IMG/VR virus record: IMGVR_UViG_2837005551_000004
Reading direction: 5' to 3' (one strand)
DNA: 20,000 nucleotides
Source: an uncultured virus (IMG/VR IMGVR_UViG_2837005551_000004)
Taxonomy: Duplodnaviria; Heunggongvirae; Uroviricota; Caudoviricetes
This document shows, one piece after another, positions 977 to 16,131 of the stretch; positions within the stretch are counted from its first letter, which is position 1, and the number at the start of each line of letters is the position of its first letter. The position numbers and the translations under genes are program-made. Below the pieces are notes generated by a model that ran no database searches, was not told the DNA's origin, and saw nothing but the letters and a program-made list of their open reading frames with translations.

Positions 977-1220
977 TGGCTTCTGCGGCCGTTGGTTTTT
1001 CGCTACGAAGTAACGGCGGCCGGTGACGCCGGCAAGCGACCGCCTCCGGCTTGGCTGTATGAAAAAATCCGGCAGCCTTCCACGATTTGTGCCAAATCGG
1101 GTATTCCGTATTTTTTCACTTGCCACACTTGCCTTGCGCCACCTGTGCCCTCCGTCTTGATTGTATCGAAAAAATCCCCCGGACGCGAGAAGCCACAAGG
1201 CTTCAAACAAAAGGGAAAAA
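977..1220. promoter_or_regulatory. Long-hairpin element, diverged copy A, upstream of parB (candidate ssDNA promoter)
   Basis: tggcttctgcggccgttggtttttcgctac (from 977) pairs with gtatcgaaaaaatcccccggacgcgagaagcca (to 1195). Shares cgaagt(a/t)ac, caag(c/t)gac, cacacttgcctt, gagaagc and gcttcaaacaaaaggga with copies B-D. Confidence 0.65.
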
Positions 1221-1253
1221 ACAAAAAACTCAAACATCTAAAACCCTCAAATT

Positions 1254-3095
1254 ATGGAAGCAACAGCAATTCAGACCAACACCGCAAACGTACAGGAAGC
1301 CACAATCTCCCTCGCTCTCATTCAGCCGAGCAACTACACCCCCCGTAAGAATTTCGACGAGCAGAGCCTCACCGAACTCGCTGACTCTATCAGCCGTCAA
1401 GGTATTCTCCACGCGATAGGTGTGCGACCAATCGCCGGCACCGACCGCTACGAAATCGTGTATGGCGAGCGAAGATACCGCGCCTCCCTCATTGCAGGGA
1501 AAGAGGACATCAAGGCAACTGTCTATACTGACCTTTCTGATGATGAAGCCGAACAAAAGGCTATTGCGGAGAACCTGCACCGCCAGGACATCACGCCTAT
1601 GGAAGAAGCCGAGACGTTAAAGGCTGCAATCGCCAGCGGACGCTACGACTATGCCACACTCGCCACGCAGATAGGCAAGAGCGAGAACTATATCCGCACC
1701 CGAATAAAGCTCACAACCCTCATACCCGAAATCGCACGGCTGATTGACACCGAAGAAATCACGGTAGCAGTGGCAACCGAAATAAGCCGTTACGGAAAGG
1801 ACGTACAGACTGATGTTTACAACTCTCACCTCAAAGACGGTGTGGTACACAATAATTGGCGAACTATGAACGCCTCAAATGTGGCACGGCTCATTGAGCG
1901 GAACTACACAACTGACTTAAGCCGTTACAAATTCGACAAATCGGCATGTGCCTCATGCCCCCACAACACCCGAAACCTCCTGCTGTTCTGCGAGGGCAGT
2001 TGCGATGGCAACTGCGCCAATACCGCTTGCCTCAGAGAAAAGCAGACCACTTATCTTCTTGACAAAGCTTTTTACGGCTCTGAGTTATTTCCGATGGCAA
2101 AATTTGGCCAGACAGAGTACGATTCCAACGATATGGTTGTTGAACGTCTTGTAAACTTCGGCTATGACGTTGAAAAAATAGGGAATAATTCAATCCCATT
2201 TCCAATGTGGCCAATGCAACCGGAACAAGACTGCTTCAGTTCCGATGTTGAATATTCCATAGCCGTTGAAGAATACGAACAGAATAAAGAAAAATGCAAA
2301 AATGATCGAGCGACAATCGAGAATATGGCAAGAGAGGGGAAAGCATCGCTTTATGTATGTATTGGCCGATACGATATTACATTATGCTACATTCCCACTG
2401 CTGAGGGTAATTTGGGGGATGTTGATAGCGAGATCGCCAATTTGGAGGCAAAGGACAAACGCAATAAAGAGATAGCCGTGGAGCGTACTATCGAGGACAC
2501 AAAGAAGATAATTCTCGAAGCCGACATCACCGAGACAAAGTTCTCGCAGGACGAGGACAAGATGATATATTTCTTCCTGCTCTCATCGCTCCGCAAAGAG
2601 CATTACGAGGCCGTCGGACTTACAGACCGCAAATCTCAATTCGCACTCAGCGACAGCGAGAAAATGACAATCATCGCCAATCTTAACGCCAAAACAAAGG
2701 CGATAATCTGCAGGGATTTTCTGATTGACAATTTCAAGGGCGCTTATCGTGACAATGCGATCGCCGACCTACTGCTCTCATTTGCCAAGAAGCACATGCC
2801 GGAAGAACTCGCTAACATCGAAACCAAGTACAAGGATGTTTATGAGAAGCGACACCAACGCATAGAGGAACGCAAGGCTCTACTAGCCAAAGATGCCGAA
2901 CCCAAAGCAACCAAGCCGGAAGCCATGGACGCACCCCAAGAAGAACCTATGCCGGAAGCTGAACCAACCACGGAAGATACCACTCCCGACACTTCCGAGG
3001 CAGAGACCGAGGCTATCCAATACGAGCCAACGGAAGAAGAAGCCGAAGCGATACTGACCGAAGAAGAAAGGTACTGCGAAGAAGCTGTTGCATAA
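1254..3095 (+). CDS. parB: ParB/RepB/Spo0J family protein (long form with a Cys cluster and an acidic tail)
   Basis: PRKNFDE, GILHAIGVR, YEIVYGERRYRAS (ParB CTPase box), ENLHRQDITPMEEA, an HTH, and CASCPHNT...C...CANTAC. Confidence 0.92.
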   Translation: MEATAIQTNTANVQEATISLALIQPSNYTPRKNFDEQSLTELADSISRQGILHAIGVRPIAGTDRYEIVYGERRYRASLIAGKEDIKATVYTDLSDDEAEQKAIAENLHRQDITPMEEAETLKAAIASGRYDYATLATQIGKSENYIRTRIKLTTLIPEIARLIDTEEITVAVATEISRYGKDVQTDVYNSHLKDGVVHNNWRTMNASNVARLIERNYTTDLSRYKFDKSACASCPHNTRNLLLFCEGSCDGNCANTACLREKQTTYLLDKAFYGSELFPMAKFGQTEYDSNDMVVERLVNFGYDVEKIGNNSIPFPMWPMQPEQDCFSSDVEYSIAVEEYEQNKEKCKNDRATIENMAREGKASLYVCIGRYDITLCYIPTAEGNLGDVDSEIANLEAKDKRNKEIAVERTIEDTKKIILEADITETKFSQDEDKMIYFFLLSSLRKEHYEAVGLTDRKSQFALSDSEKMTIIANLNAKTKAIICRDFLIDNFKGAYRDNAIADLLLSFAKKHMPEELANIETKYKDVYEKRHQRIEERKALLAKDAEPKATKPEAMDAPQEEPMPEAEPTTEDTTPDTSEAETEAIQYEPTEEEAEAILTEEERYCEEAVA

Positions 3096-3106
3096 AGCGA
3101 CAAGCC

Positions 3107-3162
3107 CCTATGTTTGAGCAAGCCACCCCATACCGAAGCGTGGGGTGGCTTATACTCATAGG
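3107..3162 (+). terminator. Hairpin after parB
   Basis: aagccacccca-N10-tggggtggctt (3120-3151), extended by cctatg/catagg. Confidence 0.6.
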
Positions 3163-3210
3163 TTCCCAAAGTATCTTCTTCAGGAAACCCTATATATCGA
3201 ACGCGATACT

Positions 3211-3840
3211 TGGAAAATTAAGGGCTTGTCGCCACCGCTTGCTTCCAAATCATATGAAAAATTAGGCGATAAGCCGTGTCAGTGGCTCGCGGATCCACAG
3301 GCACGGCACATCGCCTTGTGGTGTTTACCGTTTGCCCGACTGATTCCATGTCTCACACCGAGTCAGCTTCGGGCAGTTCTGATTTTGGATGTGATGTCCG
3401 GCTGAAGCCGGAGGCGGCGACAACGCCAGAGCAAAGCGAGGGCAGGCCTTCGCCCGACTCTCGCGTTGTCGCCTTTCTTTGGAATACCAATCTGCAAACG
3501 ATGACTTCGGCCGCTTCAAGGCTGGCACATTGAAACGGCAAGAGTCAAAGGTAGCCGGTTCTTTCCCTTGAAGATTTTGAGCCTCGGCAGGGACAGGCGT
3601 TTGGGCGTGCGAAGTTACTGCGTCCGGGAGGAACGTCAAGTGACGCTGCGCTTGTGGTCGGCGTCCGCACTCGTGAGCCTCCACAAATTCTTCTCGTGCC
3701 TCGAACAATTTGGGTATCCCTCGCTTGCCGCTGACTACACACTTGCCTTATCCTACCTTTTGGCCGCAGTTGTGGAACTGCACGAAAAACGGCCAGCCCT
3801 GCCGGAGAAGCTCAAAGAGCTTCAAACAAAAAGGGAGAAA
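3211..3840 (+). repeat. Long direct repeat copy B (branched block 3229-3556 plus rod hairpin ~3559-3838)
   Basis: Matches 8241-8930 with about 19 substitutions by eye, almost all in the upstream block, and one 60-nt indel. 3577-3835 also matches 13430-13690. Confidence 0.95.
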
Positions 3841-3863
3841 ATTAACTTAAACATCAAAAAACA

Positions 3864-4079
3864 ATGGCAAAATTCAGAGTCAGAACAAAGTACATATTCA
3901 GTGGCTTCTTCGACATAGAGGCTGAAAACGAGGCACAGGCAAAGGAGTATGTTGAAAAACACTGCGGATTGGTTATAGGCAGTGACATACATTCCTCTCT
4001 ACCTGATGATGAAGTGAACTGGGAGTTCCCAGTTCACCCTGACACAAAAATTGGCAAGACCACAAGAATTAAACCGTAG
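3864..4079 (+). CDS. Small hypothetical protein (71 aa), first gene after repeat B
   Basis: ATG after an A-rich leader; tight operon spacing. Confidence 0.8.
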   Translation: MAKFRVRTKYIFSGFFDIEAENEAQAKEYVEKHCGLVIGSDIHSSLPDDEVNWEFPVHPDTKIGKTTRIKP

Positions 4080-4114
4080 TATAAAATACACAACCGCTCA
4101 AACCCCAAAAGACT

Positions 4115-4600
4115 ATGCACAGCACTATTTATCAAATCAGCACCGAGCCGATAGCCGAGAACGACTATCTGAACAGCGACCGTATAGTGGCAGGAGAAAA
4201 CGCCTCTATATCCTATTTGTACGAAAACTCCGAGGACGGACGCAAGTTCGACATCCGTTTTCTTCTTGAACATATACTGCCGAAAGGTATGTTTACGCCC
4301 ATCGAAGAAAGCACCCTTACCTACAATGGTGGCTTCGCAATATGGCGAAAATCCCATTTCGACAACATCAAGGCTATCTCTGCCGAACTTACCCCTGCAA
4401 ACGTGATGAAATGGAACGGACCAATAGGGCAACTGAAAAAAGCCATTATCAATCCGCTTGGCGTTGACGCTCTTTTCGTGACCGAGTTCTATGGTGGTGC
4501 AGGCACGGCTGAACGCTCCGCTGACCTAATGGATATTATCGCGCGACTGAAAAAGGGCGATAGACTATACATCGGAGCAATATTAGGGTATCACAACTAA
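4115..4600 (+). CDS. Hypothetical protein (161 aa)
   Basis: Operon context; leader ctcaaaccccaaaagactATG. Confidence 0.8.
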   Translation: MHSTIYQISTEPIAENDYLNSDRIVAGENASISYLYENSEDGRKFDIRFLLEHILPKGMFTPIEESTLTYNGGFAIWRKSHFDNIKAISAELTPANVMKWNGPIGQLKKAIINPLGVDALFVTEFYGGAGTAERSADLMDIIARLKKGDRLYIGAILGYHN

Positions 4601-4612
4601 AAACATTTAGTC

Positions 4613-4849
4613 ATGGAGTTCTTTATCGAGCCTATCCCTACATGGGCGTTATGCTATCTAATCAACGGAGACCCGACAGGGTTGACAGACGATGAAATTG
4701 CGATGATTGACAGGTGGTATGCCGACAACAAAGTGCAGACCGTCACCACTGCTTCCGAAGCCGAGGTAGAGTGCCACTCATATTTCTCCCATTTCCCTGC
4801 TTTCGGACTACCTGCCGAGGTCACTGACTGCCATGTGATGACCTTGTAA
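4613..4849 (+). CDS. Small acidic hypothetical protein (78 aa; IPTWALCYLINGDPTGL motif seen in Bacteroidales mobile elements)
   Basis: Starts 12 nt after the previous stop; about 13 D/E versus 2 K/R. Confidence 0.8.
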   Translation: MEFFIEPIPTWALCYLINGDPTGLTDDEIAMIDRWYADNKVQTVTTASEAEVECHSYFSHFPAFGLPAEVTDCHVMTL

Positions 4850-4893
4850 CCATTATCTCACGAAAGTCAAACGATAATCCAAATCACACGGAT

Positions 4894-5523
4894 ATGAAAT
4901 ACGAAGATGTGTCAGCGATATTATATCGCAATCATGGTGTTTTCGACATCACAACACCCATTGGCACTCAACGCCGACGTTTGTTCCTCTCCACTGAAAG
5001 TAAGGTATGTGAGTTTGCTAAACGCTCTCGCAGGAGAGGCTATCCGATACAGCCAAACGAAATCAAATGTTGGCTGTCTATCTCCAAAGTGACAAAACCG
5101 ACAACGAATATAGTAGCCAAATTCCAACGCTATGCCTCGCGTGCAACTTTTCCGTCTGCATTTGTACGCAAGTGTCTTGAAGCTGACCCGACAAAGGACT
5201 GTTACGAGAACCGCCTTACCACCGGTACTCGCATCGACGGAGAGATTATATCCCTTGACGCTATCTCCAGATATAGCTATTGGGCGGTGGAACAGTTCAG
5301 AAAGGCTCTCAAAGAACGACGCAACTTTAATTCCGGAACATTCACTTTCCGTGGTTATGACGGTTCCCTATGGATTGAGGTCAAGCAAAAGGACGATAAC
5401 TATAACTACTATAAAGCCGGAGATATTGCCGCAGGCGTCAGTAAAGAGTATCGTGGCTGTGCCAACGGATATTACTATGCCCTTATTGATGATGAACATT
5501 TTATCGGAATTGATATAGACTGA
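4894..5523 (+). CDS. Hypothetical protein (209 aa)
   Basis: Long ORF in the operon; C-terminal SKEYRGCANGYYYALID motif. Confidence 0.8.
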   Translation: MKYEDVSAILYRNHGVFDITTPIGTQRRRLFLSTESKVCEFAKRSRRRGYPIQPNEIKCWLSISKVTKPTTNIVAKFQRYASRATFPSAFVRKCLEADPTKDCYENRLTTGTRIDGEIISLDAISRYSYWAVEQFRKALKERRNFNSGTFTFRGYDGSLWIEVKQKDDNYNYYKAGDIAAGVSKEYRGCANGYYYALIDDEHFIGIDID

Positions 5524-5533
5524 ATTATAAACA

Positions 5534-5565
5534 GCACCCTGCAATCCTCATGGAGAGCAGGGTGC
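5534..5565 (+). other. Intergenic hairpin (terminator or RNA-stabilising)
   Basis: gcaccctgc-N14-gcagggtgc, no U-tract. Confidence 0.5.
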
Positions 5566-5580
5566 ATAAAACCGAAAGAT

Positions 5581-5853
5581 ATGACTACAACCGAAATCAA
5601 CTACAAAGGCACGGACTATACCTGCCGTATCGTTACAAGCAACGAGGGCGAGAGCCTTATCATCGGTGGGCTGGAATTGCTTGACGCACTTATGCCTTAT
5701 CCAATCACCGACAAATGCAACGGCTTCGCCGACAAGGAAGCGGAGCGTGTCGATGAAGAAATCTTCTACTATACCTCCGAAAGTGATTTGAAGCTGCCCG
5801 ACAACGAACTTGTCGCAATACTTAGCGATAGCAACCCCGATTGGTTTGACTGA
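5581..5853 (+). CDS. Small acidic hypothetical protein (90 aa)
   Basis: ATG with an A-rich leader; about 20 D/E versus 6 K/R. Confidence 0.78.
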   Translation: MTTTEINYKGTDYTCRIVTSNEGESLIIGGLELLDALMPYPITDKCNGFADKEAERVDEEIFYYTSESDLKLPDNELVAILSDSNPDWFD

Positions 5854-6115
5854 AACCCAATCAACTCCCAATCCGGAATGTCATAACGACCGCCAAGCCG
5901 TGTATGGAAAACGAACCTATAAATTTGTTTTGATGAAAGTTTCTATCGTTATTTTGAGATTAATATAAACTTTATAGTTATCACGATCGGAATATAGATT
6001 AAATAATAAATCTCTATGGTTATCTGTCGAACCCACTCCTTTTTTGAGTTCATTTAAATTTTTTAATTTGCGAATCTTATTCAAACTCCGGTACGTTTGA
6101 GAAAATCAATTTTTG

Positions 6116-6772
6116 TTAGGCAATATGGACAATGTTCCCTTTCCAAATAGTGAAGTCTAATTTGTTTAGAGAGGGGATTTTAATTTCACAAGGGTTCGGT
6201 ATAAATTTATATGGTCGGCTAAATCCTGCTGCAATTCCACGAGGAGATGGTTTTATATCATCACATCCTCTAGCTGAGACAATGCATTTTTTTATAGTGC
6301 ATCCGTCAATATATTCCTTTGCCTCCGGAATCTTCATAAGGAAATTAATTGTACCGATAAATTGACTTTTTGCGTCAGATCTCTTGCTTTTTATATTTCC
6401 AATTGATAGTTCATGTATAATGAAACATTCATTATTCACAGATAAACTTACTATATAGTCTGCACGTTTTAAATCTTTTGACCAATCCACACTTGAGCTC
6501 TTTCTGAATTGGTTAATGAATTCCTCATACTTTATGAACAACAGGTCATGTGGAGCTGATGATGTACCGTTTATATATGTGGCAGCACGATCTGGTGAGT
6601 TTCTATCACATAGGATGGATCTATCAGGTTTACAGTCATGAATATCAAATTCATGTAGTGATATTAATTCATAATCAACTGTAACTTCATCCGGGAAACT
6701 GCCTAAACTTTCTTTTCTGCGTCTCACCACAGCTTGAGCAACATTATCTTTCAGTATTTCAACGAGCCTCAT
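6116..6772 (-). CDS. Hypothetical protein partnered with the ATPase; possible PD-(D/E)xK-like fold
   Basis: Starts 12 nt after the ATPase stop; AT-rich; KRADYIV...FIIHELS resembles a degenerate D...ExK nuclease motif. Confidence 0.7.
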   Translation of the reverse strand: MRLVEILKDNVAQAVVRRRKESLGSFPDEVTVDYELISLHEFDIHDCKPDRSILCDRNSPDRAATYINGTSSAPHDLLFIKYEEFINQFRKSSSVDWSKDLKRADYIVSLSVNNECFIIHELSIGNIKSKRSDAKSQFIGTINFLMKIPEAKEYIDGCTIKKCIVSARGCDDIKPSPRGIAAGFSRPYKFIPNPCEIKIPSLNKLDFTIWKGNIVHIA

Positions 6773-6784
6773 ATCGACATTGTT

Positions 6785-7930
6785 TTATCGTGAAAATTTA
6801 TCGTATTCATCATAGATGTCAGATATGGGATCAGACAATAGTGTGGCCTCAATAAGAGGCATACCTTTATAATCTTGCACCTTGAGATCTATCAGCGTTC
6901 CTTCCTCAATTAAATAAACACCTACCATATCTGGATTAATTGATGTCTCTTTGTCATTACCTCTATAGCGGGCTATCAGAAGGTTCAAATAGTTGACTAT
7001 ATATGGGCTATGGGTTGCCAACATCAGCGTCATATCATACTGATGCTTGGTTGAAAAGCAACGGTTCACTAGAAAGTCAACCATTTCAATTTGATTGTTC
7101 GGGTAGAGGCTCAGTTCAGGTTCTTCAATAAATATATTAACTCGACGGTTTGGAAACTCTCCAACGTTCATGCCTGCACGGAAATTCTTCAAATCGTCAT
7201 TGTCGGCAAAATAACTGAACAAGGCTCTGTTTAGAGAGTCTTCAAGATTGTATCTGGTTGAGTAATAGTCAGTTATAAGTCCTACTGATGTCGCAGTCTG
7301 AATTCCGGATGAAGCATCCGATAATTTAATGGAATAGTTTCCATTTGCACCGTTTCCTGAAATCCTGAAATCATTAATGCCATTTTTCTGTTTCTGCACA
7401 CTGAATTTAACTCCTAAAAAGTCAAGGCTCAGTTCTGAGATATACCTATAAGCTGTACGGAAATTCTCTAACGTGTCTTGCAGATAGAAATTATCTTTAT
7501 GTCGATCCACTGAACTGTCCAGGAGATCGGGAATTATAGATCGTTTGTCGCTTATAAATACTATTTTATCAAGACTTAAATCTTCACGCACCACTACAAA
7601 TTTTGCACTTGTGGCACCATTTTTCATAATTATTTCGTATGGGCCATTTCTATAAATTATCTGAGATGTAGGTCTGAGATATTCAAGAAGTCCTGATGTT
7701 CGAAGCAAAGGCTTGGTTTTGAATCCTATCTTTGTATTTTTGATTTTTGAATGTTTTATAAATGAGCGCAAATTCACACGTTTATACATCCATCTGAACA
7801 AGGATAGTACTTTCATAATGGTACTTTTACCACTGCCGGATTTGCCTATGAAAACGGTTAGCGGGGATATATTGTTGAGTTCAATTTCAGAAATCGGTCC
7901 AAAATCAACTATTTTGAGGTATTCTTTCAT
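6785..7930 (-). CDS. ABC-type AAA ATPase (AAA_15/AAA_21-like, defence-associated)
   Basis: N-terminal DFGPI, Walker A GKSGSGKS, signature ASSGIQ, Walker B/D-loop IFIEEPELSLYP, H-loop ATHSPY. Confidence 0.9.
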   Translation of the reverse strand: MKEYLKIVDFGPISEIELNNISPLTVFIGKSGSGKSTIMKVLSLFRWMYKRVNLRSFIKHSKIKNTKIGFKTKPLLRTSGLLEYLRPTSQIIYRNGPYEIIMKNGATSAKFVVVREDLSLDKIVFISDKRSIIPDLLDSSVDRHKDNFYLQDTLENFRTAYRYISELSLDFLGVKFSVQKQKNGINDFRISGNGANGNYSIKLSDASSGIQTATSVGLITDYYSTRYNLEDSLNRALFSYFADNDDLKNFRAGMNVGEFPNRRVNIFIEEPELSLYPNNQIEMVDFLVNRCFSTKHQYDMTLMLATHSPYIVNYLNLLIARYRGNDKETSINPDMVGVYLIEEGTLIDLKVQDYKGMPLIEATLLSDPISDIYDEYDKFSR

Positions 7931-7987
7931 ATCTTTGAGAATCCGTTAATCTTCCTTGTAACAGTTTGTTTATTTCCATTAAAAACA

Positions 7988-8019
7988 CAAAGTTAAACAA
8001 TGTCGTTTGAATATCCAAG
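7988..8019 (-). promoter_or_regulatory. Bacteroidota sigma-A promoter for the ATPase operon
   Basis: -7 box TAacTTTG (7995-7988) with CTTG 20 nt upstream (8019-8016). Confidence 0.6.
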
Positions 8020-8240
8020 TATTTGTGTCACTGAATATGTTTTTTTGTTTTTTTGTTGCTTGCAAAAATGCCTATAAAAATGATGGGCGGATTTATTTGC
8101 AGTTCTGAATTAATAAATTACAAGATGTCAATGCAATCTGTATCGGGATTTTTACTGTCATTCAAAACAAAGATTTATCCGAATATCATAGGACAAATGT
8201 CACATTGAAGGAAGATAATTGATGCTGCCACTGCGGTTTA

Positions 8241-8930
8241 TGGAAAACTAAGGGCTTGCAAGCCGTGGCGACAGGAGCGTGAGGCAGTGCGCCGGGCGTA
8301 TTACCTCACACAACCTTATCACCACCGCTTGCTTCCAAATGATGTGAGTATTTAGGCGATAAGCCGTGTCAGTGGCCCGCGGATCCACAGGCACGGCACA
8401 TCGCCTTGTGGTGTTTACCGTTTGCCCGACTGATTCCGTGTCTCACACCGATTCAGCTTCGGGCAGTTCTGATTTTGGATATGATGTCCGGCAGAAGCCG
8501 GAGGCGGCGACAACGCCAGAGCAAAGCGAGGGCAAGCCTTCGCCCGACTCTCGCGTTGTCGCCTTTCTTTGGAATACCAGTCTGCAAACGATGACTTCGG
8601 CCGCTTCAAGGCTGGCACTTTGAAACGGCAAAGGTCAACGGTGGCCGGTTCTTTCCCTTGAAGATTTTGAGCCTCGGCAGGGACAGGCGTTTGGGCGTGC
8701 GAAGTTACTGCGTCCGGGAGGAACGTCAAGTGACGCTGCGCTTGTGGTCGGCGTCCGCACTCGTGAGCCTCCACAAATTCTTCTCGTGCCTCGAACAATT
8801 TGGGTATCCCTCGCTTGCCGCTGACTACACACTTGCCTTATCCTACCTTTTGGCCGCAGTTGTGGAACTGCACGAAAAACGGCCAGCCCTGCCGGAGAAG
8901 CTCAAAGAGCTTCAAACAAAAGGGAAAAGA
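8241..8930 (+). repeat. Long direct repeat copy C (most complete copy, with 60 extra nt at ~8259-8318)
   Basis: Offset to copy B is 5030 before the indel and 5090 after it. 8651-8920 is identical to 3561-3830 by eye. Confidence 0.95.
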
Positions 8931-8955
8931 ATTAGAACTCAACCATTTCTGAATT

Positions 8956-9381
8956 ATGCAAGGAACAGAAAAATTCAAGGTCGCTATCAAGACCTATCTT
9001 GACAAGAGAGCACAAGAGGATACACTATTTCGTGCAAAGTACGAAACCACCAGTCGCACTATTGATGATGTTGTGACCTACATTCTCAATGAGGTCAAGG
9101 CTTCGGGGTGTAATGGCTTTGCCGATGCTGAAATCTACTCTATGGCTGTCCACGTCATAGACGAGCCGACACTTGAAATCGGCAAGCCTATCAAGTGCAA
9201 CGTAGTGGTTAATCACCATATCGAACTCACAGAGGAAGAAAAGACACAACAGAGGGAACTCACCCTCAAACGCTTCCAAGAGGAGGAACTCCGTAAGTTG
9301 CAGACACGTAACTCCAAGCCCAAGACGGTAAAGCCACAAGAAACCAAACAACCCGAACTCTCACTCTTTGATGATTTTTAA
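8956..9381 (+). CDS. PcfK-like family protein
   Basis: FKVAIKTYLDKRAQEDTLF...YILNEVKASGCNGFADAEIYSMAVH...C-terminal LSLFD; directly upstream of the PcfJ gene. Confidence 0.85.
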   Translation: MQGTEKFKVAIKTYLDKRAQEDTLFRAKYETTSRTIDDVVTYILNEVKASGCNGFADAEIYSMAVHVIDEPTLEIGKPIKCNVVVNHHIELTEEEKTQQRELTLKRFQEEELRKLQTRNSKPKTVKPQETKQPELSLFDDF

Positions 9382-9383
9382 TA

Positions 9384-10658
9384 ATGAAAGCGAGAACCAA
9401 GTTTGAAAAGCAGGTAGCAACCTCTAATGTGAGGCTGACCGCCGTAGCCCCCAAAGTTTTTGAGTGGGGAGTGAGAAATCTAATAACGCACCCGGCTTTC
9501 CGGGTTCCGAGCGGTAGAACCACTTGCGGAGATTGCGGTCATAAGTTCATACATAAGGGAAAAGGCAAATATGTAGTTTGCCCTAAATGTGGACACGAAC
9601 TTGAAATCAAGGACACTTTCAAACGCTCCCATAAGGAGGGTACTTACTTTGCCATTCTTGACACCATTGACGGACTGCAAGTAGAGAGAGTATTTCTATT
9701 GTCGGCATACTTCAAAAAGGGAAATAGTATAAGTGTAGGCCATAATGAGGTGTGCCGTCTTTGGCTCAATGCCAAAGGACAGACCGCACTGACATCTAAG
9801 GTACGGACACTCGGATGTTATCGGGATTGCTTTAATTGGGGTTCTACCATTGAACTGAGAAATATGACCGAAGTTCATCACATAATCGCCAATACTTGGC
9901 ACTATCCCAAATATAAGGCCATTCCGAAACTGAAGAGAAACGGGATGAAAGGTACATTACCCGATTGTCACCCATTTGACCTTATGAAAGGACTACTGAA
10001 CGACGCAAGGATTGAGACGCTGATGAAAGCCCGAAACCAAAAGGCGGTTAAGTATTTTATTGACAATCCACGTATGCTTGACAAGTGCTGGAACACCCAC
10101 AAAATTGCAACACGTCACGGCTACAAGATTGAAGATTATAGTCTATGGTGCGACCTCATAACCCTGCTTGAAAAGTGCGGACGTGACACGCGAAGCCCCA
10201 AATATATATGCCCTACCAATCTTAGAGCCGAACACGATTTTTGGCTTGACAAGTCAACCGCCGATGAAGAAAGACGCAGAAAAGCCGAGCAGTTGCTCAA
10301 AGCAAAGAAAAAGGAGGAGGATTTTTTCAAGAATAAGTCTTGTTTCTTCGGTATCGTCATCAAGGATAATGATATTGAAATCTCAGTGCTTGACTCCATT
10401 GAGGCATATAAAGCCGAGGGAGAGGCTATGCACCATTGCGTATTCAAGTGTGAGTATTATGACAAGGAGAACTCAGTAATTCTGTCGGCACACGATAAGA
10501 ACGGCAACCGCATTGAGACTATTGAGTTTTCACTGACAGAATATAAAGTGGTACAGAGCCGAGGTGTATGTAACAAAAACACCGAATATCACGACCGCAT
10601 TGTAAATCTTGTAAATGCCAATGCTCATCGCTTTATCAAAGCAAGGGCAACCGCATAA
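9384..10658 (+). CDS. PcfJ domain-containing protein
   Basis: N-terminal zinc ribbon; C-terminal EGEAMHHCV...ILSA...RIETIE...VVQSRGVCN PcfJ motif. Confidence 0.9.
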   Translation: MKARTKFEKQVATSNVRLTAVAPKVFEWGVRNLITHPAFRVPSGRTTCGDCGHKFIHKGKGKYVVCPKCGHELEIKDTFKRSHKEGTYFAILDTIDGLQVERVFLLSAYFKKGNSISVGHNEVCRLWLNAKGQTALTSKVRTLGCYRDCFNWGSTIELRNMTEVHHIIANTWHYPKYKAIPKLKRNGMKGTLPDCHPFDLMKGLLNDARIETLMKARNQKAVKYFIDNPRMLDKCWNTHKIATRHGYKIEDYSLWCDLITLLEKCGRDTRSPKYICPTNLRAEHDFWLDKSTADEERRRKAEQLLKAKKKEEDFFKNKSCFFGIVIKDNDIEISVLDSIEAYKAEGEAMHHCVFKCEYYDKENSVILSAHDKNGNRIETIEFSLTEYKVVQSRGVCNKNTEYHDRIVNLVNANAHRFIKARATA

Positions 10659-10675
10659 TTCAGAAATGTTAGATT

Positions 10676-10734
10676 AACCGCACTCTGCCCGTGAGGGTCG
10701 GGCGGTTTTGCTTCGTACCCTCAGCAAAACCGCC
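10676..10734. terminator. Overlapping hairpins between convergent genes (probable terminator)
   Basis: aaccgc...ccc-gtga-ggg...gcggtt followed by tt, overlapping a perfect 12-bp inverted repeat ggcggttttgct/agcaaaaccgcc (10701-10734). Confidence 0.6.
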
Positions 10735-10755
10735 TGCTTGGAAATTATTTATATT

Positions 10756-11313
10756 CTATAAATTAAAGAACGAGACCTCTTCCTCTAACCTTTTCCATAA
10801 GTCTGTTATTTCGTTTTCTTTGTCAATAGCGTATTCTAATATAGAACAATTATCTTGAAAAAATTGTGTTTCGTGCGGGAAACAATAAAGAATCAAATTC
10901 TTTAAGAACCCAGGGAATGATGTCTTTCCTGAAGCTATCACCTCATCAATGTCTTCAATGTGAGGAAAAACTCGAATAGAGAAACTCTCTTGCCGAAAGT
11001 TTGGCAAAATTCTTTTATAATGATCCAATTCTGTATTAAACAAAAGTAATGACGTCCTGACATGTACCTCAGAGTAGACCTTTTTAACACCCTCTAAGAT
11101 CAGATCATCAATTATATCCGAGGGATATCGTTCTTCTTTATTCCCAAAATACAGACCTTCATCAGGATTAGAAGCCGGTTTCATTTTATAATTAGGCATA
11201 GGCCTTCTTAAATATATCATTTCGGCTCTATGCGGCACACCTCCAATTTCTTGTACGACAGAAATCGTCTTCACGAATCTTATTTCATCTTGCGGTAAAA
11301 TTGTAATAACCAT
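10756..11313 (-). CDS. AT-rich hypothetical protein (185 aa)
   Basis: Long ORF in AT-rich DNA, co-oriented with and downstream of abiE; no motif recognised. Confidence 0.7.
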   Translation of the reverse strand: MVITILPQDEIRFVKTISVVQEIGGVPHRAEMIYLRRPMPNYKMKPASNPDEGLYFGNKEERYPSDIIDDLILEGVKKVYSEVHVRTSLLLFNTELDHYKRILPNFRQESFSIRVFPHIEDIDEVIASGKTSFPGFLKNLILYCFPHETQFFQDNCSILEYAIDKENEITDLWKRLEEEVSFFNL

Positions 11314-11514
11314 ATACTATAAGAACCATAAATTTATTATTTCAACAATCTATCTGCATAATAGTTCATTCAATTTACATATTTTGTATACATTAAACAA
11401 TCGGTGGTGATATTTCTTATGTTTTGAAGCTATGTTAGCAAGGAGAATCGGCAAGACTAAATGACGGCAGAACCTGCGAAAATTTGCCATTGTTTAGTCG
11501 ATGGAATATTATAC

Positions 11515-12576
11515 TTACATCAGATTATCTATGAGATACCAATAATAGAAGGCTTCCGGGCGGCTCTTTTTGAGTTTGTTCAACTTTGCCGGGAGAACCG
11601 TACATATACTCATTTCTTGAGTGACAGATTCGAGACTATATTTTTGAATATTGGTGATGCCTTTCTCTATACAGGTTGCTATATAGGCAGCTTTTGCAGA
11701 ATCTACTATCGCATCCTCTATGAAGTATCTGTTCTCAAAAATGAATGATCCGAGTCGTTTTATTCCATCTTGCAGGAGTGAAAAATCTCCGGTGCCAAAT
11801 AATCCTCTTGTGGCAATCAGCAAGGCTGTCTGGCGTATATCATCGAAAATTATTGATACATCGCTACCAAGGTTACGATAACCAAGTTCCACAAGTGCTA
11901 TACGATGAAAAGATTTCGTTGTTATCTCCAGATTATCAACCGCATCAAACAGACGGCCTATGTCGTATGCCTGTTTCATGATTTCGGTTGAATGAGGATT
12001 GCCGTTTTTGTAATAAGGAATACCGGTTGTATTCGGAGCAAATGCGGTAAGTTTATCGCCAAGTATATCTCCTATGGACGGTACTTTTACGGTAGATGGT
12101 GCGTCATCAAGTTCTATAAATTGATTTATCACATCAACCACATTCACCTGGTTGTAATGCGTATCCTCATAGAGAACATCAAGCAGTATATAGGACTCTT
12201 GATTAGACCTGTCATTGTAGGCTATCTGGTAAAAGAACTTGGAGTGTGTCTTGGATATGTCTTTGCCTGCCTGTCTGCGCTCTTTAAGCTCAGTTCTTGT
12301 GAAACCGAAGTCATTAATCTTATCGAGATATTCCTCAACATTTGTACCCGGAGGACAAATTATATCAATGTCTATTGACAGTCGCTTTGTGCCATCCCCG
12401 AGAATCAGCCCCACACAAGTACCTCCCTTGAAGATGAAAGGACAGCCTGAACGTGCAAGCATATCAAGCAGGGCGTATGCCCTTACCACCTTCTCGATTA
12501 TACCGAGATCGTTGTATCTATATTTACGAGACATGGACTGAAACCAGTCTTTTGTGAAGCATTGTTCCTTAATCAT
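11515..12576 (-). CDS. abiEii: AbiEii/AbiGii-family nucleotidyltransferase toxin (type IV TA)
   Basis: IEKVVRA...LL, FIFKGGT, RLSIDIDI, ILGDKLTAF and KQAYDI motifs. Confidence 0.9.
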   Translation of the reverse strand: MIKEQCFTKDWFQSMSRKYRYNDLGIIEKVVRAYALLDMLARSGCPFIFKGGTCVGLILGDGTKRLSIDIDIICPPGTNVEEYLDKINDFGFTRTELKERRQAGKDISKTHSKFFYQIAYNDRSNQESYILLDVLYEDTHYNQVNVVDVINQFIELDDAPSTVKVPSIGDILGDKLTAFAPNTTGIPYYKNGNPHSTEIMKQAYDIGRLFDAVDNLEITTKSFHRIALVELGYRNLGSDVSIIFDDIRQTALLIATRGLFGTGDFSLLQDGIKRLGSFIFENRYFIEDAIVDSAKAAYIATCIEKGITNIQKYSLESVTQEMSICTVLPAKLNKLKKSRPEAFYYWYLIDNLM

Positions 12577-13297
12577 GGGTGTTCAGATTTTCGAGGGCTT
12601 TCCCGACTTTATCCTTTGCATTGCGCCTGGAAGCATAGCGCATGAGGGTTGAACGGTTTACGGAATATGTATTCATGACATGATCGAGGATGTAATGCCA
12701 TTCCGAGCCATGGAGATAATCCATATCATCATCACACAAAATGTCTACAAGAATTTTCTCTATCCTTGGGGTTGATATTCCCCGTATCTCAGTAAGTGGA
12801 GATTCTGATATGAGGGGCTTGACGATAACAGCTTCTTTGGAAATATCAATGTTGTCATATACAAACTCCTTATTTGGATTAAGATAGGCTATATATCTTT
12901 CACTTTTCAGCCAATGGAAGACTGACTCCATCGCTTCGCGTTCAACCTCAATGTAAATGAGATTATTCGATGAAAGATGATGCTGGAAATCGGCAAGCAC
13001 CTGCCCGTCAAAGACACTAACTTTTATAAACGGAAATGTTCCGCCAATGCGTTTTCCTAATTTTAGCGCTTTCTCTCGCAACTGGGGAGTATAGCACGTT
13101 GACTGATGTTGCCGACTTGTATAAATACCGCGTCCAAGCTTGAACAGGATATCATCTTTCACCATCTCCCTGAGATACCAGGAAAGCGTGACTTTTGATA
13201 TGTTGATAATACCGTTTAGATATGAAAATAGATCGGCAAACCGGAAAGATTCCCGATTTTCCGCATACGTCAATATGGCTGCTCTCGTCTCAATCAT
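12569..13297 (-). CDS. abiEi: AbiEi-type antitoxin / winged-helix regulator (DUF6577-like)
   Basis: N-terminal wHTH ending KLGRGIY, PRIEKILVD, RYASRRN; 8-nt overlap with the toxin gene. Confidence 0.82.
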   Translation of the reverse strand: MIETRAAILTYAENRESFRFADLFSYLNGIINISKVTLSWYLREMVKDDILFKLGRGIYTSRQHQSTCYTPQLREKALKLGKRIGGTFPFIKVSVFDGQVLADFQHHLSSNNLIYIEVEREAMESVFHWLKSERYIAYLNPNKEFVYDNIDISKEAVIVKPLISESPLTEIRGISTPRIEKILVDILCDDDMDYLHGSEWHYILDHVMNTYSVNRSTLMRYASRRNAKDKVGKALENLNTHD

Positions 13298-13319
13298 TGA
13301 TTGTATTCATTTTCTGATG

Positions 13320-13368
13320 CAAAGATAACTATATAACGGCAAATATTCAAATATTTGCCGTTATATAG
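13320..13368 (-). promoter_or_regulatory. abiE promoter with an overlapping 19-bp perfect inverted-repeat operator
   Basis: -7 TAtcTTTG (13327-13320); -33 TTTG (13351-13348), 20-nt spacer; inverted repeat ctatataacggcaaatatt-ca-aatatttgccgttatatag (13329-13368). Confidence 0.85.
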
Positions 13369-13429
13369 CGCTGTCAAGTCTTATGAGTCAATACATCAGT
13401 TCAAGATTGTCTCTATTCTCTTGTGTGCA

Positions 13430-13690
13430 TTGAGCCTCGGCAGGGACAGGCGTTTTGACGTGCGAAGTTACTGCGTCCGGGAGGAACGTCAAGTGACGCT
13501 GCGCTTGTGGTCGGCGTCCGCACTCGTGAGCCTCCACAAGTTCTTCTCGTGCCTCAAACAATTTGGGTATCCCTCGTTTGCCGCTGACTCCACACTTGCC
13601 TTATCCTCCCTTATGGCCGCAGTTGTGGAACTGCACGAAAAACGGCCAGCCCTGCCGGAGAAGCTCAAAGAGCTTCAAACAAAAGGGAAA
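13430..13690 (+). repeat. Repeat copy D: rod hairpin only
   Basis: Matches 3577-3835 with about 8 substitutions and begins exactly at ttgagc, the arm that pairs with gctcaa. Confidence 0.95.
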
Positions 13691-13723
13691 ATATTAACTC
13701 AAACGCTCAAACATCAAAGGACT

Positions 13724-13918
13724 ATGCGAGTAAAACGAATGAAAGTAGCGGAGGGCAGACGGCTAAATATCGGGCAGTTCCCCAATTTCCACCGCTCCGG
13801 CTCCATTAGGGGCATGAAAAAACTGTACTATGGCGAGGACTGCCTTTTGGTACGCTGTGGCAACTACATCTACAACGTGACCTCCGAACCCTCAATCTAC
13901 AATCAGGCAACAATCTAA
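13724..13918 (+). CDS. Small basic hypothetical protein (64 aa)
   Basis: ATG 13724 follows the leader ctcaaacatcaaaggact; the upstream part of track ORF 13355..13918 is repeat DNA. Confidence 0.75.
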   Translation: MRVKRMKVAEGRRLNIGQFPNFHRSGSIRGMKKLYYGEDCLLVRCGNYIYNVTSEPSIYNQATI

Positions 13919-13930
13919 AACAAATACACT

Positions 13931-14251
13931 ATGGAAGATTATAACGGAATAGCAATATCCAAGAACGACAAGGGATTTGTCGTGGCGTTTGACAACTTTG
14001 TCAACGGCAAAATGCAATCCGCAACCAACACAGGAAAGGCACTCGCCACAATACACCGCTATTTGCAGTCGCAGGCTTTCAAGGTGTGCGTGGCTTATAT
14101 CCGTCAGCTCGCTGTTAACTACCGCACCGGCTATTATGACGAGCGGAACGAGACGGCAGCCCGGAGAGCGGTAATGATGTACGACACGCTGATGAACGGC
14201 GATGAAATCTATGACCCCGAATATAAGGAACTAAAGGATAAAAGCGTATGA
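13931..14251 (+). CDS. Hypothetical protein (106 aa)
   Basis: Operon spacing and an A-rich leader. Confidence 0.8.
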   Translation: MEDYNGIAISKNDKGFVVAFDNFVNGKMQSATNTGKALATIHRYLQSQAFKVCVAYIRQLAVNYRTGYYDERNETAARRAVMMYDTLMNGDEIYDPEYKELKDKSV

Positions 14252-14415
14252 ACGATACCGATTTTCCCGAATACGGACGCCAGTGCGAGTTGCTGACACC
14301 GTGGCGAGGCTACCACCGTGGCACAATCGTAGGACTGAACGGCTACCGCTTCATCATCGAGGTAAGCAGTGGCGCGAGGATTGAACTTTACGAAGATGAA
14401 ATTGAATTTGACTGA
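14248..14415 (+). CDS. Small hypothetical protein (55 aa), absent from the ORF track
   Basis: ATGA overlap with the upstream stop; MNDTDFPEYGRQCELLTPWRGYHRGTIVGLNGYRFIIEVSSGARIELYEDEIEFD*; ends 2 nt before the next ATG. Confidence 0.75.
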   Translation: MNDTDFPEYGRQCELLTPWRGYHRGTIVGLNGYRFIIEVSSGARIELYEDEIEFD

Positions 14416-14417
14416 CT

Positions 14418-14780
14418 ATGAACAGACTTTTGACACCGAAATTTGAGGAAGCCATAAAGGACTATCCTCTGTATTCGCAGGACGGCAAGGAGAGAAATGC
14501 CGTGTGTGTGGCGATATTCACTATCGGAAATGTCCGTTGGTTTGTGCTTGAAGGAGGCAAAGAGGGAGACGATACAATCCTTTACTGCATAGTGGTCGGG
14601 CTCGGCGAAGATGAATACGGCTATGTGTCGCTCAACGAACTTGCCGATGTCGAACTCGACTACCGCAAACAAGGCTTCGGCATTATCCGAGTGATACAAA
14701 TGCCGTATTTCACCCCATGCCCCATAGGGCAGATAAGCGACAAGAGGCTTCAAGACTTCTTGAACCGCCTCTACGATTGA
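14418..14780 (+). CDS. DUF2958-like protein
   Basis: PLYSQDG, WFVLEG and EYGYVSLNEL motifs. Confidence 0.78.
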   Translation: MNRLLTPKFEEAIKDYPLYSQDGKERNAVCVAIFTIGNVRWFVLEGGKEGDDTILYCIVVGLGEDEYGYVSLNELADVELDYRKQGFGIIRVIQMPYFTPCPIGQISDKRLQDFLNRLYD

Positions 14781-14789
14781 CCGAACACA

Positions 14790-14817
14790 TCAGCCGTGGC
14801 ACAACCGCCACGGCTGA
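14790..14817 (+). other. Intergenic 11-bp perfect hairpin
   Basis: tcagccgtggc-acaacc-gccacggctga. Confidence 0.6.
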
Positions 14818-14834
14818 CATTACACCGTAAGAAT

Positions 14835-15215
14835 ATGGATATACAAGATATAATCGACATGATAACCGAATGTGCCGAAGCTAACGGCTGGCACGTCCAT
14901 ACTGAAAAATACCTCGACGCTGATTTATGGCTGTTTGAGTTCTCGCAATACACAAAGGCAGGGCAGGATTTTAATTTCTCGGCAGAAATGAGATATGCCG
15001 ACCCCGATACTTTGATAAAGTCAGTGAGAGAATATTACGAGAACTATGACCCCGATGAGGAGGCATATCTCTGGATTGGCGATGACGGACACGGCAAGAA
15101 CGGTGCGCCATACCGTATCTCGGATATTGTAGCCGACATGGAGGACGCGGAGTCCATTGTCGGCACTCTGCTTGAAGCCTTTGAGGGACTTGACTTTGCC
15201 CCATGCGGTGAATAG
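14835..15215 (+). CDS. Acidic hypothetical protein (126 aa)
   Basis: ATG 14835 preferred because the GTG at 14796 lies inside the hairpin; about 30 D/E versus 7 K/R. Confidence 0.78.
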   Translation: MDIQDIIDMITECAEANGWHVHTEKYLDADLWLFEFSQYTKAGQDFNFSAEMRYADPDTLIKSVREYYENYDPDEEAYLWIGDDGHGKNGAPYRISDIVADMEDAESIVGTLLEAFEGLDFAPCGE

Positions 15216-15283
15216 AGCCTTACTTTTCAAAATTCGGCCTGCCACCTCCATGCCGGACGTGGCAGACATAAACGTGTAATGAC

Positions 15284-15655
15284 ATGATTTTACAAACCAT
15301 AATCCAAGTTGCCGCACAATGCGACTGGAGCGTGACCGCCAACGTGAGAGACGGAAACATCACCTCTTTCGATTTCCGGCGGAATACCGAGAGCGGAGTG
15401 CCGTTCTGCTTCTCAGCCGACATGACCGGTAGCAAACCGGCTTCGCTGGTGGACGACATACTGTCGTTCATCGACGCTTTCCAACCAGACATCTTCGCGC
15501 GTCAGTGGTGTCTGATTTCGGGTGCCGGAGAGAGCCGTTATGCGCAGACACTCTCCGACATGGACGGCATACGCAGCCAGGCATGGCTACTCGCCATCGA
15601 CCTATCCGAAGCCTTCGCCGCTCCGCGCCCCTCACAGTGGTATCTCTGGAACTGA
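15284..15655 (+). CDS. Hypothetical protein (123 aa), distant paralog of 14835..15215
   Basis: FDFRRNTESGVPFCFSADM versus FEFSQYTKAGQDFNFSAEM; AFQPD versus NYDPD; LSDMD versus VADME. Confidence 0.72.
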   Translation: MILQTIIQVAAQCDWSVTANVRDGNITSFDFRRNTESGVPFCFSADMTGSKPASLVDDILSFIDAFQPDIFARQWCLISGAGESRYAQTLSDMDGIRSQAWLLAIDLSEAFAAPRPSQWYLWN

Positions 15656-15665
15656 CAGTGCCGAT

Positions 15666-15914
15666 TTATCGGTTCTTCCGTTTTCTTCCCCGCTTGACCT
15701 GCGGGTGGTCGAGCAGGAAGATTATGTCGCTTCCGAGTATCAGCCTGTGCCAGCCGTTTTCCGAGCGGCGGTATGGGAGTACCGGGGGCGATTGCCTCAT
15801 GTATTCGTAAATGGTCGTATGGCTTATGCCGAGCAGTTTTCTCGCCGCCATCACCGAATACAGCAAATCAGGGACTATCCTGTGGAAATCAGGGCGCATG
15901 GCTTTTCTCCCCAC
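15666..15914 (-). CDS. Small helix-turn-helix DNA-binding protein (excisionase/MerR-like)
   Basis: LYSVMAARKLLGISHTTIYEY...RRSENGWHRLILGSDI. Confidence 0.65.
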   Translation of the reverse strand: MGRKAMRPDFHRIVPDLLYSVMAARKLLGISHTTIYEYMRQSPPVLPYRRSENGWHRLILGSDIIFLLDHPQVKRGRKRKNR

Positions 15915-16131
15915 TTTCCATCACCGCCTGCCGGCGGTATTCGTTTATGAAAACTTCGGCGGCTTCCACTGCCATCTCTGCGGAGAGGCTGATATGCGCT
16001 GGCCACCGTGCAAGACGGTTCTCCGGAGTCACTACATCCGACAGCCGTATGTCGTGATAATACAGCGCGACTGCAAGGTCATATTTCCGCTGTTCCCAAT
16101 CTATGGGTGTAGGTTGTACGTTGTCTTTCAT
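15889..16131 (-). CDS. Hypothetical protein (80 aa)
   Basis: ATGA overlap with the ATPase stop; IDWEQRKYDLA...AEMAVEAAEVFI pattern typical of phage small proteins. Confidence 0.7.
   Translation of the reverse strand: MKDNVQPTPIDWEQRKYDLAVALYYHDIRLSDVVTPENRLARWPAHISLSAEMAVEAAEVFINEYRRQAVMESGEKSHAP

Follow-up and report, generated by a model that had tools for sequence, protein, structure and literature searches.

What four long hairpins are doing in front of four separate gene blocks is the question raised by the DNA considered here, a stretch of 20,000 nucleotides (nt) that was recorded as part of an uncultured virus (IMG/VR record IMGVR_UViG_2837005551_000004) and is referred to below as the window. 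The window corresponds to G000:C4:60383-80382 and lies in the right-hand part of a Bacteroidales-type integrative conjugative element (ICE). The favoured explanation, to which a probability of roughly 0.65 is assigned, is that each hairpin is a promoter active in single-stranded DNA (ssDNA), similar in kind to Frpo of the F plasmid, without detected sequence homology to it, and adapted to sigma-ABfr, the housekeeping sigma factor of the Bacteroidota. An ssDNA promoter was the interpretation offered in the original prediction, and it now draws comparative and structural support from covariation of the hairpin arms, a null result in Rfam, co-orientation of all 61 elements found with their downstream genes, conservation of the promoter boxes and placement of the -7 box core in an internal loop.

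Hairpin elements and their putative promoter boxes

The presence of four long hairpins, one before each block of plus-strand genes, was confirmed, with 25-33 nt between the end of each element and the ATG that follows (element ends and ATGs at 1220/1254 for A, 3838/3864 for B, 8930/8956 for C and 13690/13724 for D). The elements are:

977-1204, minus strand: element A, a rod plus a small basal hairpin (GAAGCC 1189-1194 / GGCTTC 1199-1204), preceding the gene for a ParB-like protein; fold of -61.9 kcal/mol on the minus strand
3578-3823, minus strand: element B, a rod plus a small hairpin (GAAGCTC 3807-3813 / GAGCTTC 3817-3823), preceding an open reading frame (ORF) of 71 amino acids (aa) and four further plus-strand ORFs
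8668-8913, minus strand: element C, equivalent to B displaced by 5090 nt, preceding pcfK and pcfJ
13431-13676, minus strand: element D, preceding a 64-aa ORF (ATG 13724) and a plus-strand block that extends to 16149

Copies B (3577-3867), C (8667-8957) and D (13430-13720) form one family of 291-nt direct repeats that are 92% identical without gaps, or 94-97% identical in pairwise BLAST comparisons. Copy A is, as had been noted, very divergent and yet a member of the same family; BLAST aligns 57 nt of it at 78% identity, and nhmmer recovers it with an E value of 7.6e-60. All four fold on both strands into the imperfect rods that had been described, about 240 nt in length, with minimum free energies (MFE, DNA parameters) of -53 to -64 kcal/mol. 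For copy B this corresponds to z-scores of -4.8 for the minus strand and -4.1 for the plus strand, and none of 100 dinucleotide shuffles was as stable. Between each rod and its ATG come a small conserved hairpin (GAAGCTC-AAA-GAGCTTC) and then an A-rich sequence, AAACAAAAGGGAAAA. The 3.55-Mb genome contains no further copy, and all four lie in the ICE in a single orientation; miniature inverted-repeat transposable elements (MITEs), by comparison, are recognized by many dispersed copies in either orientation. The elements also lack a counterpart among known RNA families, no match to any of them being found in Rfam 15 at E values up to 1; three sub-threshold matches to microRNA models were returned, all of them on a palindrome at 13326-13371.

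The minus strand carries the boxes that first suggested a promoter, CTTG-N19-TAACTTCG at 3640-3610, 8730-8700 and 13493-13463 and CTTG-N19-TTACTTCG at 1036-1006, arranged as follows:

1006-1036, minus strand: A boxes, -33-like CTTG at 1036-1033, a 19-nt spacer and -7-like TTACTTCG at 1013-1006
3610-3640, minus strand: B boxes, CTTG at 3640-3637 (paired with 3742-3745), a 19-nt spacer and TAACTTCG at 3617-3610
8700-8730, minus strand: C boxes, -33 at 8730-8727 and -7 at 8707-8700
13463-13493, minus strand: D boxes, -33 at 13493-13490 and -7 at 13470-13463

Canonical boxes reading in the direction of the genes were found to be missing, as had been stated: no plus-strand TAnnTTTG lies within 250 nt of the four ATGs, and one exact match is located at 3109, 750 nt before block B.

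Homologous elements were sought in loci selected independently of the boxes. Fourteen PcfK homologues were aligned, and the alignment served to fetch 80 loci, one genome per species, with no regard to the motif; among their sources are Muribaculaceae, Bacteroides, Phocaeicola, Prevotella and Parabacteroides. An nhmmer search seeded with the four window copies and iterated to convergence over the window and these loci (81 sources) recovered 61 elements, of which 55 are distinct, in 41 sources (the window and 40 of the 80 loci), with two or three copies present in several loci.

When the 55 distinct sequences were aligned on the minus strand with MAFFT, the T..TT.G columns of the -7 box were invariant, as were the T and G of the upstream TTG, whose middle T is nearly so. 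The pattern T[A/T]nnTT[T/C]G is present in 55/55, with TA at the first two positions in 48; the box ends in TTTG in 38/55 and in TTCG in 17/55, the four window copies all being of the latter type, and exact TAnnTTTG is found in 32/55. The two 'nn' positions are occupied by AC, CC, AT, TT, TC, GC or AA. The distance from TTG to the box is 19 nt in 43/55, 18 in six, 20 in two, 21 in two and 16 in one, and the remaining sequence has TTCG in place of TTG. The boxes are the most conserved columns of the arm, while 'nn' and the spacer vary, the latter in covariation with the other arm. Promoters of the Bacteroidota are described by TTTG-N19-21-TAnnTTTG. The consensus for sigma-ABfr comprises TAnnTTTG at -7 and TTTG at about -33, separated by an A+T-rich spacer of variable length (PMC7366714), and judged by sequence the boxes and their spacing fit it.

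The combination of boxes and fold is specific to the family. A scan for TTG-N17-21-T[AT]NNTT[TC]G coupled to a fold test (the TTG paired at long range, and a fold no weaker than -17 kcal/mol per 100 nt) placed the motif in a long hairpin at 45 of 536 sites in the loci and window, all 45 being family members on the minus strand, and at none of 472 sites in 1.28 Mb drawn from this genome's other contigs. The part of the element most conserved in sequence is the apical block at the rod tip, GGAATACCC-AATTT...AAATT-GTGGAAGGCTGCC (1076-1120 in copy A), in which ATACC is invariant in the alignment (A3); this block may be a protein-binding site or a site at which folding is nucleated.

The predicted ssDNA ensembles of the 55 minus strands, averaged position by position, indicate how the boxes are presented. 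The -33 region CACTTG has a pairing probability of 0.97, and the spacer is mostly paired at 0.7-0.97, with lower values (0.32-0.61) at the three positions just 3' of TTG. In the -7 box the first T is paired at 0.84, positions 2-7 at 0.28-0.39, and the last G and the bases that follow at 0.91-0.94. In these models the -7 core therefore sits in an internal loop that is conserved across the family and is faced by a longer, variable segment of the template arm. The original prediction had a paired -33 box and a -7 box facing non-complementary bases in all four copies; this stands for the family and for copy A, in which the six core bases of the box (1012-1007) are unpaired opposite seven unpaired bases (1156-1162), and is only partly borne out in B, C and D. 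Beyond the box come five paired bases and then a run of A opposite a run of T on the template arm, both of which are invariant.

On the minus strand the gene-distal arm is the 3' arm, and along it the boxes run 5' to 3' away from the rod tip and down to the base, so the paired gene-proximal arm would be the template; past the base of the rod this template continues along the minus strand beneath the plus-strand genes. On the modelled folds, transcription would be predicted to start 4-9 nt past the G of the box, at 1167-1174 in A, 3784-3789 in B, 8875-8879 in C and 13638-13642 in D, giving a plus-sense RNA with a leader of approximately 80 nt (about 79 nt in B). The A-run that marks the predicted start in B occupies 3785-3789. 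Frpo is described as operating with the same geometry (PMC9849209; PMC11541004). Behind the predicted start there is a small hairpin followed by AAACAAAA and no U-tract terminator, so that the RNA should run on into the genes.

Covariation of the rod and linkage to downstream genes

That the rod itself is under selection, the absence of covariation being an outcome that would have told against the original prediction, is indicated by its pattern of substitution. The minus-strand MFE folds of the 55 sequences were projected on the MAFFT alignment A3, yielding 72 pairs. Standard base pairs occupy 84.7% of 3855 cells, versus 72.5% in column shuffles and 36-45% when the partners are slid by 1-3 columns; both sides change in 50/72 pairs (505 cells), and in 0/500 shuffles was the observed value matched on any of five measures. 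Columns 151/317, for example, are occupied by GC in 23 sequences, UA in 22 and AU in four, and columns 171/304 by CG in 22, GC in 20 and AU in six, while an independent run of RNAalifold found compensatory changes in 22/35 pairs. A caution is that the structure came from the same sequences and that the shuffle control is inflated by their relatedness; the slid control and the variety of pair types point to a real effect. Covariation of the arms suggests that a single strand holding both of them has been selected to fold. The minus strand is the more stable of the two in 47/55 elements, by a mean of 4.1 kcal/mol.

Linkage to genes is equally regular. All 61 elements have the orientation of pcfK, in keeping with the proposed co-orientation with downstream genes, and behind every one of them an ORF of at least 40 aa begins with ATG at a distance of 5-107 nt (median 27 nt). 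The 61 downstream ORFs fall into 11 groups: PcfK, with 19 members, six groups of 2-16 members, and four singletons, one of which is the ParB-like gene of the window. Among the six groups of intermediate size five are without a Pfam family and one has a match to DUF6926. On the left side the neighbour is mixed; by crude ORF calls, 32 elements have an ORF on the minus strand there and 29 have one on the plus strand.

Outside the PcfK loci the family is sparsely represented. Among 400 further genomes of the order searched by BLAST with copy B, three gave weak or partial matches, of which one is a convincing homologue (G359, 70% identity over 240 nt), and neither copy A nor copy B had a BLAST match in 72,556 plasmid records. 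A pattern scan for the apical block (GGAATACCC...GGAAGGCTG) through another 400 genomes of the phylum, seven of them from the same order, gave one match (G418); inspected by eye, it has neither hairpin nor boxes and was read as chance. Seven loci with a Bacteroidales-type pcfK, some of them with hairpins (L012, L017, L026, L030, L052, L066 and L069), come from metagenome-assembled genomes (MAGs) labelled Clostridia, Lachnospiraceae, Oscillospiraceae, Eisenbergiella or Selenomonas, for which binning errors seem more likely than transfer across phyla.

The surrounding ICE and the strand transferred

The gene blocks that follow the elements, and the cargo between them, are distributed in the window as follows, together with many small ORFs without a Pfam family:

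1254-3095, plus strand: block A, a gene for a 613-aa ParB-like protein (Pfam ParB_N 1.7e-22, HTH_ParB 1.2e-08)
3864-5853, plus strand: block B, five small ORFs of 71, 161, 78 (DUF6926), 209 and 90 aa (ORF list and Pfam)
6116-7930, minus strand: cargo between B and C, an AAA_15/AAA_21 ATPase and a 218-aa ORF (Pfam), with its own TAACTTTG box at 7995
8956-10658, plus strand: block C, PcfK-like protein of 141 aa (8956-9381) and PcfJ-like protein of 424 aa (9384-10658) (Pfam 4.9e-52 and 1.4e-42)
10756-13297, minus strand: cargo between C and D, a 185-aa ORF, AbiEii and DUF6577 (Pfam), with its own TATCTTTG box at 13327
13724-16149, plus strand: block D, seven small ORFs, one with a weak DUF2958 match and the rest without a Pfam family
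18876-20000, minus strand: tyrosine integrase (Pfam), the only recombinase found in the window, at the end of the ICE

To the left of the window the genes of the ICE, located by ORF calling and a Pfam scan, are all on the plus strand; an HTH_17 ORF at about C4:39.4 kb is the first mobility gene seen, followed by:

C4:41527-42723, plus strand: relaxase
C4:44258-46351, plus strand: TraM and TraN
C4:47436-49745, plus strand: coupling protein
C4:55982-57304, plus strand: ArdC
C4:57309-58499, plus strand: Toprim primase

The same scan over C4:36000-50000 detected no VirB4-type TraG, TraJ or other type IV secretion system (T4SS) genes in this ICE.

Whether the minus strand is the one that enters a recipient can be approached through gene order. 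This ICE, a Prevotella MAG chromosome (G404, locus L021) and a B. finegoldii chromosome (G401, locus L029) share a common order on one strand, consisting of relaxase, T4SS genes, coupling protein, DUF4099/DUF3945, MutS_I, ArdC, the hairpin element and PcfK-PcfJ. A Toprim primase is found between ArdC and the element in this ICE and in G401 and is absent from that position in G404. G401 has an apparently complete T4SS, with a NikA-like gene ahead of the relaxase and, left of this NikA-like/relaxase end, an integrase-like ORF. Relaxase genes are usually situated in the lagging region and enter last (PMC11541004). If the relaxase is last here, the circular ICE would enter from the end opposite the relaxase and then deliver the cassettes; taken together with the co-orientation seen in three of four contexts, this would make the minus strand both the transferred strand and the template for the cassettes. 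By analogy with F, the genes driven by a given hairpin would then enter immediately ahead of it. No oriT or nic site was found, BLAST between the regions upstream of two relaxase genes giving no match, and when the relaxase of this ICE was searched for in five locus-bearing genomes it was near the locus only in G404, indicating that the relaxases of these ICEs differ. In G401 and G404, genes of the ImpB/MucB/SamB family (UmuC-like) lie beside PcfJ on the opposite strand (L021 13578-15062, minus; L029 12258-13714, minus) and resemble the umu-like operons that have been reported at the borders of plasmid anti-defence islands.

Several further features were observed in and around the ICE. A 300-nt direct repeat with 95% identity occupies 3225-3524 and 8315-8614, immediately to the left of elements B and C, and contains a hairpin with 28-nt arms (3416-3473 and 8506-8563); since the repeat is absent from all 80 related loci, it looks like a local duplication that took place along with the element. 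The perfect A+T-rich palindrome at 13326-13371, with 20-bp arms, separates element D from the DUF6577/AbiEii operon of the minus strand; it is placed immediately upstream of the TATCTTTG box at 13327 and may be an operator or a two-way terminator. Beyond the integrase, groES and groEL are outside the ICE, and to their right is a second, small mobilisable element (G000:C4:84000-89000) with DUF3853, DUF3987, MobC/NikA-like and relaxase genes. A Mu-like prophage is present a few kb to the left of the ICE (G000:C4:8000-35300), with genes for a Mu-type portal, Mu F, GemA, DUF3164, a MuB-like ATPase, a tail tape measure protein and an amidase.

Weighing a single-stranded promoter against other functions

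As an ssDNA promoter, the element would work as follows. The minus strand of the ICE would enter the recipient as ssDNA during conjugation, and each inverted repeat of about 240 nt would snap into a rod. The gene-distal arm would supply the non-template sequence TTG-N19-TAnnTT(T/C)G, with the -33 box in perfect helix, the spacer paired and the -7 core already open, while the gene-proximal arm would serve as template. RNA polymerase would begin synthesis in the conserved A/T run, 4-9 nt beyond the box, leave the base of the rod and proceed along ssDNA into the gene block some 80 nt further on, until synthesis of the complementary strand destroyed the rod and shut the promoter off in that direction. 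The four elements would in this manner drive four cassettes (the ParB-like gene, the five small ORFs, PcfK-PcfJ and the seven small ORFs), which would be expressed in a burst on entry like the leading genes of F and ColIb-P9.

There is close precedent in the Frpo and ssi3 hairpins, which act as ssDNA promoters of the leading regions of F and ColIb-P9 (PMC9849209; PMC11541004). The elements described here resemble them in being long imperfect hairpins in one strand whose stem rebuilds both boxes of the main sigma factor of the host, and in lying just upstream of genes that are templated by the same strand, small, mostly of unknown function and of the establishment or anti-defence type (PMC9849209; PMC11541004). 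The resemblance extends to arrangement: in F, 5 kb and a toxin-antitoxin locus separate Frpo1 from Frpo2, which are 92% alike (PMC9849209), and here copies with 92-97% likeness (B, C and D) follow one another at intervals of about 5 kb, the AbiEii/DUF6577 and ATPase genes lying between. Three of the features by which the Frpo/ssi class is defined were found, namely a stable imperfect hairpin, both sigma boxes at 18-21 nt (53/55) and a promoter facing the downstream genes, and on the modelled folds the elements match Frpo/ssi on all structural criteria examined. The differences are that the boxes are TTG/TAnnTTTG (sigma-ABfr) rather than TTGACA/TATAAT, and that the carriers are Bacteroidales ICEs instead of enterobacterial plasmids. 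Sequence similarity to Frpo/ssi was detected neither in Rfam nor in the 72,556 plasmids, a collection that is expected to include F-like plasmids, the Frpo sequences themselves not having been compared. With canonical sigma-ABfr promoters the elements share the two boxes, a spacing of mostly 19 nt and, as expected, a purine-rich start zone; unlike them, they carry the boxes opposite the strand of the genes served, in a G+C-rich paired stem, with the -7 core in an internal loop.

Origins at which a second strand is primed offer another precedent for a folded element of this kind. At ssoA-type origins RNA polymerase makes a short primer. Frpo is said to make primer RNA besides its role as a promoter (reportedly the subject of a 1997 title by Masai and Arai), and both functions may coexist here. 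That the hairpins recruit RNA polymerase mainly for such a primer, their link to genes being secondary, is nevertheless considered improbable. Rolling-circle plasmids and ICEBs1 do use orientation-specific ssDNA hairpins as single-strand origins, and in this respect the elements are like ssoA, ssoU, ssoT and sso1 in being orientation-specific and folded and in residing on a conjugative element, where they would act on the strand left single by transfer (PMC4595007); the conserved apical block GGAATACCC...GGAAGGCTGCC, with its invariant ATACC, is moreover a feature that a promoter leaves unexplained. However, sso1 of ICEBs1 is a single non-coding site for second-strand synthesis, downstream of the relaxase gene nicK and upstream of ydcS (PMC4595007), whereas up to four copies are present per ICE here, each abutting the start of its own gene block with a promoter pointing into it. 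Placement 5-107 nt before an ORF in 61/61 cases, the lack of a U-tract terminator past the predicted start, and the Toprim primase that these ICEs themselves carry (in this ICE and in G401) all speak for transcription of the genes.

The boxes would also make a good sigma-ABfr promoter in double-stranded DNA (dsDNA), firing leftward to give antisense RNA or to express cargo genes, and lying by chance inside a structured plus-strand RNA leader or processing site. The left-hand neighbours are on the minus strand in 32/61 cases, and contigs from a mouse gut metatranscriptome (runs X9 and X13, about 95% identity) cover 8271-8844 and 8271-8899, including both arms of copy C; these contigs are strandless and could reflect carry-over of DNA. 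The metatranscriptomic data, consisting of four runs from one mouse gut sample in one study and available as contigs without strand or start sites, show the highest depth over the ATPase cargo region (5727-8300), no coverage of the bin containing copy B (3336-4002) in any of the four runs, and low coverage of the bins spanning copy D and the start of its block (13341-14674) in two runs with little or none in the other two. An RNA made in the leftward direction would include no more than the basal 30 nt or so of one arm, and cannot therefore explain covariation between the arms; conservation does not extend leftward of the rod, and the 300-nt repeat next to B and C occurs in 0/80 loci; and the minus-strand cargo operons have TAnnTTTG boxes of their own directly upstream (7995 and 13327). 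For the structured RNA that this explanation also invokes, G·U should exceed A·C, as expected of a selected RNA helix, and it does not (187 versus 156 cells), although this is a weak test; the minus strand is more stable in 47/55, and Rfam returned no match. That leftward transcription from dsDNA is what the elements are for is accordingly regarded as unlikely. Least probable, and very unlikely, is a recombination site or mobile repeat (an attC-like folded site, a MITE or a cassette boundary) with promoter-like boxes by chance. The elements do flank variable gene cassettes with cargo inserted beside them, and the 92-97% likeness of B, C and D within one ICE in which A is divergent suggests exchange between copies, but the only recombinase found in the window is the tyrosine integrase at the end of the ICE, the genome holds four copies and all are inside the ICE, orientation is strict (61/61), and conservation peaks in the columns of the boxes, whose spacing is fixed at 19 nt.

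A number of points weigh against the ssDNA promoter itself, which is supported by comparison and structure rather than by function. As dsDNA, these boxes (perfect in 32/55) should drive transcription leftward, away from the genes, and a minus-strand ORF lies to the left in 32/61. The paired spacer is G+C-rich, versus A+T-rich in ordinary sigma-ABfr promoters (PMC7366714). In B, C and D the MFE fold pairs four of the eight box bases (in B, AACT 3616-3613 with 3776-3779), leaving TC 3612-3611 unpaired and a 5-nt bulge (3771-3775) on the template arm, as in C and D. In the structure, which was itself taken from minus-strand folds, G·T (187 cells) and A·C (156 cells) are nearly equal, so wobble pairs do not name the folding strand. 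The conservation of the apical block is left unexplained by every reading, the promoter included. No such element was found within 10 kb in the 40 loci with a more distant PcfK (mostly at most 60% identity), nor a motif in a hairpin in the 400 nt upstream of pcfK in those loci. As for transfer, the choice of the minus strand draws on gene order, the fourth context (G402) has been rearranged by IS21 and ISL3 copies and cannot be interpreted, and the transfer apparatus of this ICE may be partly deleted and its capacity for self-transfer lost.

A large survey of leading regions sought Frpo by BLAST to five known Frpo/ssi sequences together with the TTGACA/TATAAT consensus (PMC11541004), and a search so limited, as the article describes it, could not have found these elements; no word beginning with 'bacteroid' occurs in its main text. 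The original prediction knew of no such promoter for the Bacteroidota, and a search of the freely accessible full-text literature likewise found no description of one; an article that bears on the subject mentions B. fragilis ArdA and the ColIb-P9 promoter in general terms only.

A broader proposal, which we hold to be somewhat on the probable side of even, is that Bacteroidales ICEs possess their own class of ssDNA promoters, in which the -33 and -7 boxes of sigma-ABfr are rebuilt in a covarying hairpin with a pre-melted -7 box and the copies act as modular 'entry switches' for establishment and anti-defence cassettes, a folded downstream copy perhaps serving as a roadblock or insulator and the RNA perhaps as a second-strand primer. 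Should the promoters work, early expression from the incoming strand would have evolved independently in the Bacteroidota, whose promoters differ in build, and the elements would be a natural substrate for studying how sigma-ABfr recognizes a -7 element that is here partly unpaired. The signature of hairpin, TTG-N19-TAnnTTTG and A-run would find leading regions and early genes in Bacteroidales ICEs, in which oriT is mostly unmapped, and dozens of families of small unknown ORFs would become candidate anti-defence or establishment factors in the gut microbiome. If the broader proposal is true, zygotic induction from ssDNA would be a convergent solution that spans phyla, and conserved hairpins would flag anti-defence genes in the most abundant phylum of the gut.

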